This document shows, piece by piece, positions 52,861 to 53,751 of a DNA stretch of 64,000 bases (positions are counted from its first letter, which is position 1; every line of letters starts with the position of its first letter). The notes beneath the pieces are model-generated. The model made no database searches. It was not told where the DNA came from and saw only the letters and a list, made by a program, of their open reading frames with translations. The position numbers and the translations under genes were made by a program. The DNA comes from Escherichia coli. GTDB lineage: Bacteria > Pseudomonadota > Gammaproteobacteria > Enterobacterales > Enterobacteriaceae. The DNA is taken from assembly GCF_050920415.1 (NCBI RefSeq), contig NZ_CP169309.1. One strand, written 5' to 3'.

Positions 52861-53751
52861 ATGATGCCGCGTCTGACCGCTAAAGACTTCCCACAAGAGT
52901 TGCTGGATTACTACGACTATTACGCTCACGGGAAAATTTCGAAACGTGAGTTCCTCAACCTTGCGGCGAAGTATGCGGTGGGCGGGATGACGGCATTAGC
53001 GTTGTTTGATTTGCTCAAGCCAAATTATGCGCTGGCGACTCAGGTAGAGTTTACCGACCCGGAAATTGTTGCTGAGTACATCACGTATTCTTCGCCAAAT
53101 GGTCACGGCGAGGTACGGGGTTATCTGGTGAAGCCCGCAAAGATGAGCGGCAAAACGCCAGCCGTGGTGGTGGTGCATGAGAATCGTGGACTGAATCCGT
53201 ATATCGAAGATGTGGCACGGCGAGTAGCGAAGGCGGGGTATATCGCCCTGGCACCTGACGGCTTAAGTTCCGTTGGAGGTTATCCGGGTAATGATGATAA
53301 AGGTCGTGAGCTGCAACAGCAGGTTGATCCAACCAAACTGATGAATGATTTCTTTGCCGCAATTGAGTTTATGCAACGCTATCCGCAAGCGACAGGCAAA
53401 GTGGGTATTACCGGATTTTGCTATGGCGGTGGTGTATCGAACGCGGCGGCTGTCGCGTATCCGGAACTGGCCTGCGCGGTGCCGTTTTATGGTCGTCAGG
53501 CACCCACTGCCGATGTGGCGAAGATTGAAGCGCCTTTACTGCTCCACTACGCGGAACTGGATACCCGAATCAACGAGGGCTGGCCCGCTTACGAGGCGGC
53601 GTTGAAAGCCAATAATAAGGTCTATGAGGCGTATATCTATCCGGGGGTTAATCACGGATTCCATAATGATTCCACGCCCCGTTATGACAAATCTGCCGCC
53701 GATCTTGCCTGGCAAAGGACGCTGAAATGGTTCGATAAATATCTCTCCTGA
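52861..53751 (+). CDS. yghX: Dienelactone hydrolase family protein, apparently intact
   Basis: 296 aa from ATG preceded by GAGGAG; alpha/beta hydrolase with GFCYGG nucleophile motif. Confidence 0.7.
   Translation: MMPRLTAKDFPQELLDYYDYYAHGKISKREFLNLAAKYAVGGMTALALFDLLKPNYALATQVEFTDPEIVAEYITYSSPNGHGEVRGYLVKPAKMSGKTPAVVVVHENRGLNPYIEDVARRVAKAGYIALAPDGLSSVGGYPGNDDKGRELQQQVDPTKLMNDFFAAIEFMQRYPQATGKVGITGFCYGGGVSNAAAVAYPELACAVPFYGRQAPTADVAKIEAPLLLHYAELDTRINEGWPAYEAALKANNKVYEAYIYPGVNHGFHNDSTPRYDKSAADLAWQRTLKWFDKYLS

Follow-up and report, generated by a model that had tools for sequence, protein, structure and literature searches.

The gene at 52864-53751 of the window, the 64,000-nucleotide stretch of Escherichia coli DNA analysed here, is very probably yghX in its intact ancestral form: a chromosomal gene for a 295-residue alpha/beta hydrolase of the dienelactone hydrolase family. 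The copy in K-12, and that in about one sequenced E. coli in four, is dead. Intact yghX is itself already known, being annotated, covered by a family model and represented by a solved structure. At this locus the K-12 reference is the exception, and YqhI, which has been studied as a stress-induced small protein and has given its name to a Pfam family, can be read as an N-terminal remnant of YghX. The features discussed below are listed here, with residues numbered on the 295-residue protein that starts at 52864.

52851..52856, + strand: Shine-Dalgarno sequence GAGGAG of yghX (direct reading; invariant in K-12, O157 and ST131)
52864..53751, + strand: intact yghX coding sequence, 295 aa plus stop (ORF, PGAP start in an identical strain, NF041440, PF01738)
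52864..53037, + strand: leader, residues 1-58, a predicted Tat-type export signal (PF23678, alignment, 4ZV9 boundary)
52864..52971, + strand: codons 1-36, retained in K-12 as residues 1-36 of YqhI, 47 aa (frame-0 translation matching YqhI)
52972..52973, + strand: AT in the codon of Tyr37, absent in K-12, the first frameshift (alignment, allele counts)
53089..53091, + strand: codon 76, TCT (Ser), a minority allele (ortholog alignment, allele query)
53333..53334, + strand: CC in codon 157, of which K-12 lacks one C, the second frameshift, which restores the frame (alignment, allele counts)
53419..53421, + strand: codon of Cys186 in G-F-C-Y-G-G, the predicted nucleophile (invariant in a 10-sequence ortholog alignment)
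53560..53562, + strand: codon of Asp233, the predicted triad acid (24/24 in the alignment of distant homologs)
53653..53655, + strand: codon of His264 in V-N-H-G-F, the predicted triad base (23/24 in the same alignment)

The reading frame is open throughout, from an ATG at 52861 to a TGA ending at 53751 on the + strand (891 nt, 296 codons plus stop). The original prediction had described a single uninterrupted ORF of about 296 codons behind a Shine-Dalgarno sequence, and both are present as described. Its coordinates hold to within one codon, the start at 52861 being one codon early. Positions 52861-52866 read ATGATG in the window and ACGATG in K-12, O157:H7 and ST131, and RefSeq (PGAP) begins the protein of strain MFDS1022581 at the second ATG, window position 52864 (295 aa, WP_001360974.1). 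Because the first ATG is ACG elsewhere and RefSeq starts at the second, 52864 is taken as the conserved start, and the ATG at 52861 was dropped as a candidate for that role; this window-specific extra ATG would add one Met to YghX. The GAGGAG motif lies 7 nt from the ATG at 52864 and 4 nt from that at 52861. A program-made list of ORFs opens the frame earlier, with a GTG at 52819 for a product of 310 aa. A promoter and terminator scan of 52600-53950 returned nothing on the + strand above shuffled expectation.

The identity of the product is supported by two profile matches. The NCBIfam model NF041440, "YghX family hydrolase", scores 586.3 bits (cutoff 460) over profile positions 1-292 of 292, and the Pfam dienelactone hydrolase (DLH) family PF01738 matches residues 85-295 (E 3e-48; 164.6 bits, with a gathering threshold of 21) over profile positions 1-217 of 217. 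The assignment of the gene to the dienelactone hydrolase family, made from the sequence at the outset, is therefore borne out. The surroundings are equally familiar: gpr (yghZ) is divergent from yghX, and yghW and then hybO, of the hyb hydrogenase-2 operon, follow downstream, in the same order as in W3110 and MFDS1022581. The DNA of the window is 100% identical over 1201 bp to that of MFDS1022581, where RefSeq annotates the gene as intact under the name "YghX family hydrolase". A 1.2-kb yghX region is present in 5425 of 5426 complete E. coli genomes, and the position of the ORF is annotated as yghX in 5414 of the 5426, which argues against a chance ORF. Since only 19 genomes have at least 99% identity to the window over the 1.2 kb, the window represents a minority haplotype.

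The non-coding sequence on either side of yghX has features of its own. At 53832-53857, perfect 11-bp inverted arms flank a spacer of 4 nt (TCGCTATATAT GACA ATATATAGCGA); this repeat ends 13 nt before the yghW start and just upstream of the yghW Shine-Dalgarno sequence. K-12, ST131 and a further three E. coli loci have it exactly, and the O157 and LR-45 loci gave no exact match. An operator and a hairpin in the 5' UTR are among its possible roles. Between gpr and yghX, K-12, O157 and ST131 share one sequence at 52761-52793, from which the window departs by about 10 substitutions within 33 nt; the flanks are nearly identical. This cluster, in the divergent promoter region, may mark a short patch of recombination.

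In K-12 W3110, yghX is flagged in RefSeq as pseudo and "frameshifted", as the original prediction had stated. That prediction named alignment with the K-12 region as its check, and the alignment returned a K-12 ORF that is not intact and that differs from the window by two deletions, one of 2 bp (AT, 52972-52973) and one of 1 bp (one C, 53333/53334). A single K-12 frameshift, considered initially, was ruled out by the same alignment. Together the two deletions remove 3 bp, which accounts for the K-12 gene being just 3 nt shorter. It is nonetheless out of frame for about 120 codons with many stops before the frame is regained, and residues 37-157 are destroyed.

The distribution of the two lesions was followed across the 5426 complete genomes with queries of about 52 nt, each centred on one lesion so as to keep the other allele from seeding a match. 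At the site of the 2-bp deletion, the deletion allele was found in 1505/5426 genomes and the undeleted allele in 3785/5426, with 136 genomes matching neither query; at the site of the 1-bp deletion, the corresponding counts were 1199/5426 and 4221/5426. Undeleted sequence is thus present in about 70-78% of genomes, including O157, ST131 and BL21, a figure that refers to the two K-12 lesion sites and not to the intactness of the whole ORF. The window carries the majority undeleted sequence at both sites and has no internal stop. The counts, taken with a spread sample of matches (eight rows at -3, one at -2 and none with -1 only), point to the 1199 genomes with the 1-bp deletion being nested inside the 1505 with the 2-bp deletion, a nesting drawn from counts and sample rather than followed genome by genome. 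In one strain the 2-bp deletion stands alone; its gene is flagged as frameshifted and is otherwise identical to that of K-12. Given that identity, it is likely that the lesions are young and that the 2-bp deletion in codon 37 came first, the 1-bp deletion about 360 bp downstream apparently having arisen later within that lineage.

Other lineages have lost or altered the gene in other ways. In LR-45, yghX has a +1 frameshift, and in IAL7255 it is truncated in association with IS1, its 3' end now lying next to mdtM; a strain named "ExPEC" keeps an intact annotation with an in-frame +3 variant. The independent inactivations (K-12 type, LR-45 and IAL7255) imply that yghX is dispensable in many E. 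coli. Separately, the Nissle derivative EcN_Sk (NZ_CP172017.1, 767397-767447), a B2-type strain, matches the query for the 1-bp deletion at 98% identity, a match that points to the CC run having lost a C independently there, or else to an artefact of sequencing or engineering.

Outside E. coli, full-length intact orthologs of 294-299 aa with 85-92% identity are found in Citrobacter koseri, Pseudescherichia, Enterobacter, Kosakonia, Leclercia and others. On the C. koseri-type contig the order is gpr, yghX, an inserted chemoreceptor gene, yghW and hybO; the insert between yghX and yghW is a gene for a methyl-accepting chemotaxis protein with TarH/HAMP/MCPsignal matches (locus L006, 4105-5745). 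The alleles of the window, O157 and ST131 show a dN/dS of 0.04-0.05, nearly all their differences being synonymous. For the comparison of the window with C. koseri, synonymous sites are saturated and dN/dS cannot be computed, and pN (0.06) and pS (0.76) are given in its place. At yghX, the dS of ST131 against the window or K-12, about 0.20-0.22, is high for a within-species comparison, with a very low dN. The intact outgroup orthologs, the shared synteny and the low dN/dS support the proposal, made originally, that the intact allele is the ancestral functional form, and together the comparisons indicate that intact yghX is ancestral and is maintained by purifying selection.

The opposite polarity, in which E. 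coli began with the frameshifted form and the intact allele is derived, for example by reversion or recombinational re-import, might be entertained given the frequent recombination in E. coli and the high synonymous diversity at yghX (dS up to 0.22, ST131 vs K-12). It would nevertheless have to accommodate undeleted sequence in 70-78% of genomes, O157, ST131 and BL21 among them, an intact gene in every outgroup genus, and a K-12 pseudogene with no further differences from the intermediate with the 2-bp deletion alone, hence young lesions; we consider it barely credible. A second doubt concerns the window allele itself, whose ORF might be open while its product is crippled, a cryptic pseudogene, for instance if the change of Pro76 to Ser cost it its fold or its activity. 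Position 76 is Pro in nine close orthologs, K-12, O157, ST131, C. koseri and PDB 4ZV9, and Ser in the window; all other orthologs and distant homologs examined have Pro or another residue there. This near-invariance of Pro76 among close orthologs, the presence of the Ser76 (T) allele in just 145/5426 genomes by a seed-blocking query, and the repeated losses of yghX in E. coli would fit such a product. Yet the segment around position 76 (TY-x-S-x-x-G) is variable in distant homologs and far from the triad in the sequence, and because the position varies in this way Ser76 is not regarded as inactivating. The 145 genomes that share it come from diverse hosts, hence it is no fresh lesion; moreover, the triad and motif residues are all intact, and the window allele has just 2-5 amino-acid differences from other E. 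coli alleles. A crippled product is accordingly improbable, and the intact ancestral allele remains the preferred reading. Several of the Ser76 carriers were isolated from swine, PCN033 and O139:H1 strains among them.

Beyond its annotation, YghX has attracted little attention. A literature search found no functional study or assay; yghX appears as an annotation label, as a locus regarded as a pseudogene that serves as an integration site (PMC7677707), and in one suggestion, based on "GXCXG", that YghX might be a cPHB polymerase (PMC3709699). The protein appears to comprise a catalytic domain of approximately residues 59-295 preceded by the conserved leader. The crystal structure PDB 4ZV9, which matches residues 59-294 (E 8e-160), is the hydrolase domain of YghX, and carries four O157-type residues (F69, P76, N135 and F229). 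In an alignment of 24 sequences, the window protein and 23 relatives with 36-68% identity, the predicted triad is kept down to 36% identity (C186 in 22/24, D233 in 24/24 and H264 in 23/24) in the canonical Cys-Asp-His order. A Cys186-Asp233-His264 triad would act via a thioester acyl-enzyme on Cys186, and the substrate, judged from the family, would be an ester, lactone or thioester. No catechol-pathway genes were found near yghX in the window.

The leader, residues 1-58, is highly conserved among close orthologs. It comprises an LLDYYDYYAH motif, S-K-R-E-F-L-N with KR in the variant position, a mildly hydrophobic stretch, K52 and A56-L57-A58. The n-region of the window protein, at 26 residues, is unusually long and strongly conserved. 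At the position aligned to K27-R28, 18/24 sequences have RR and 3/24 have KR (the window and two homologs); F30 is present in 23/24 and is followed by Leu or Met, and AxA is conserved. The h-region, AVGGMTALALFDLL, contains Asp49 and averages 1.75 on the Kyte-Doolittle hydropathy scale; K52 and AxA then follow. The chain of PDB 4ZV9 aligns from residue 59, with two chain residues ahead. PF23678, "YqhI-like", matches residues 2-37.

The same leader is the source of a protein known under another name. The frame-0 product of the K-12 gene, MPRLTAKDFPQELLDYYDYYAHGKISKREFLNLAAKCGRRDDGISVV followed by a stop (K-12 locus L001, 2665-2808), is identical to the sequence of YqhI, a 47-aa small protein detected by epitope tagging (PMC6001520). 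YqhI is therefore the stump of the YghX leader, made up of 36 yghX codons and 11 out-of-frame codons, and the small ORF as such is absent from the window. It follows that PF23678 describes the leader of YghX-type hydrolases, and the detection of YqhI in K-12 implies an active promoter and ribosome-binding site for yghX. YqhI has also been counted among small proteins induced by low Mg2+, with increases in both transcription and translation and an induction that is independent of PhoQP; the growth defect of a yqhI deletion was not complemented by YqhI (PMC11429745). That paper does not mention yghX.

An RR motif, a weak h-region, a basic residue in the c-region and AxA are the defining features of Tat signals, in which KR variants are tolerated. 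The leader has the layout of a Tat signal peptide, and the enzyme would on this basis probably be periplasmic; export of YghX to the periplasm is proposed here with moderate confidence. More tentatively, and short of an even chance, the whole may be seen as an unrecognised Tat substrate of E. coli: a periplasmic cysteine hydrolase with a KR-variant signal, in which the motif ahead of the twin arginines, LxDLYDxYxH, would have a role of its own, for example in chaperone or proofreading binding, and of which YqhI would be a stump only. YghX is probably missing from lists of E. coli Tat substrates because K-12 has no working copy. A literature search combining dienelactone hydrolase and twin-arginine returned nothing relevant, and no paper tying the family to Tat was found.

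It is also possible, although we are rather inclined to doubt it, that the enzyme is real and yet is not a cleaved, Tat-exported periplasmic protein, the N-terminus anchoring it uncleaved in the membrane, acting as a Sec signal or forming a cytoplasmic domain. Such arrangements would be compatible with KR rather than RR in the window, with the long conserved 26-residue n-region that Pfam treats as a domain (PF23678), with Asp49 in an h-region of only 1.75 hydropathy, and with the soluble behaviour of the K-12 stump YqhI (PMC11429745), although YqhI lacks the h-region. They fit less well with the canonical RR-x-F-[LM] in 18/24 sequences, followed by an h-region of weak hydrophobicity, then a basic residue in the c-region and AxA, and with the fact that the depositors of 4ZV9 left out exactly this leader. 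If the Tat reading is true, the low-Mg2+ induction reported for YqhI would really describe the regulation of yghX. The study of YghX function or of its Tat export needs strains other than K-12, or a repaired allele.

Comparison with known systems places the window gene closest to the YghX family reference (NF041440, WP_001360974.1, PDB 4ZV9), with which it shares both the gene and the gpr-yghX-yghW-hybO context, differing by allele only: the minority Ser76, Tyr229 and the extra in-frame upstream ATG. The K-12 pseudogene, listed in Swiss-Prot as "Putative hydrolase fragment YghX", is the same locus with about 97% DNA identity; with three bases restored, its protein has two unambiguous residue differences from the window, at 76 and 229, the two repaired codons not being comparable. 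The closest solved relative that is not YghX is PDB 3F67, a putative dienelactone hydrolase (E 8.5e-24) that shares the HE-x-x-G, GFCxGG and H-x-F motifs, the GFCYGG of YghX aligning to its GFCWGG; it is an uncharacterised structural-genomics target with a 241-aa chain and no leader. More distantly, ClcD of Pseudomonas (PDB 1DIN and others; carboxymethylenebutenolidase, EC 3.1.1.45) belongs to the same Pfam family and is matched at residues 72-289 (E 6e-15, 58 bits). The two proteins have in common a Cys nucleophile in G-x-C-x-G-G. The Cys-Asp and Asp-His spacings of YghX, 47 and 31, are near the 48 and 31 of the ClcD triad, Cys123/Asp171/His202. However, ClcD is a cytoplasmic protein of 236 aa encoded in a chlorocatechol pathway operon, whereas YghX has a 58-residue leader and is encoded without aromatic-degradation neighbours.
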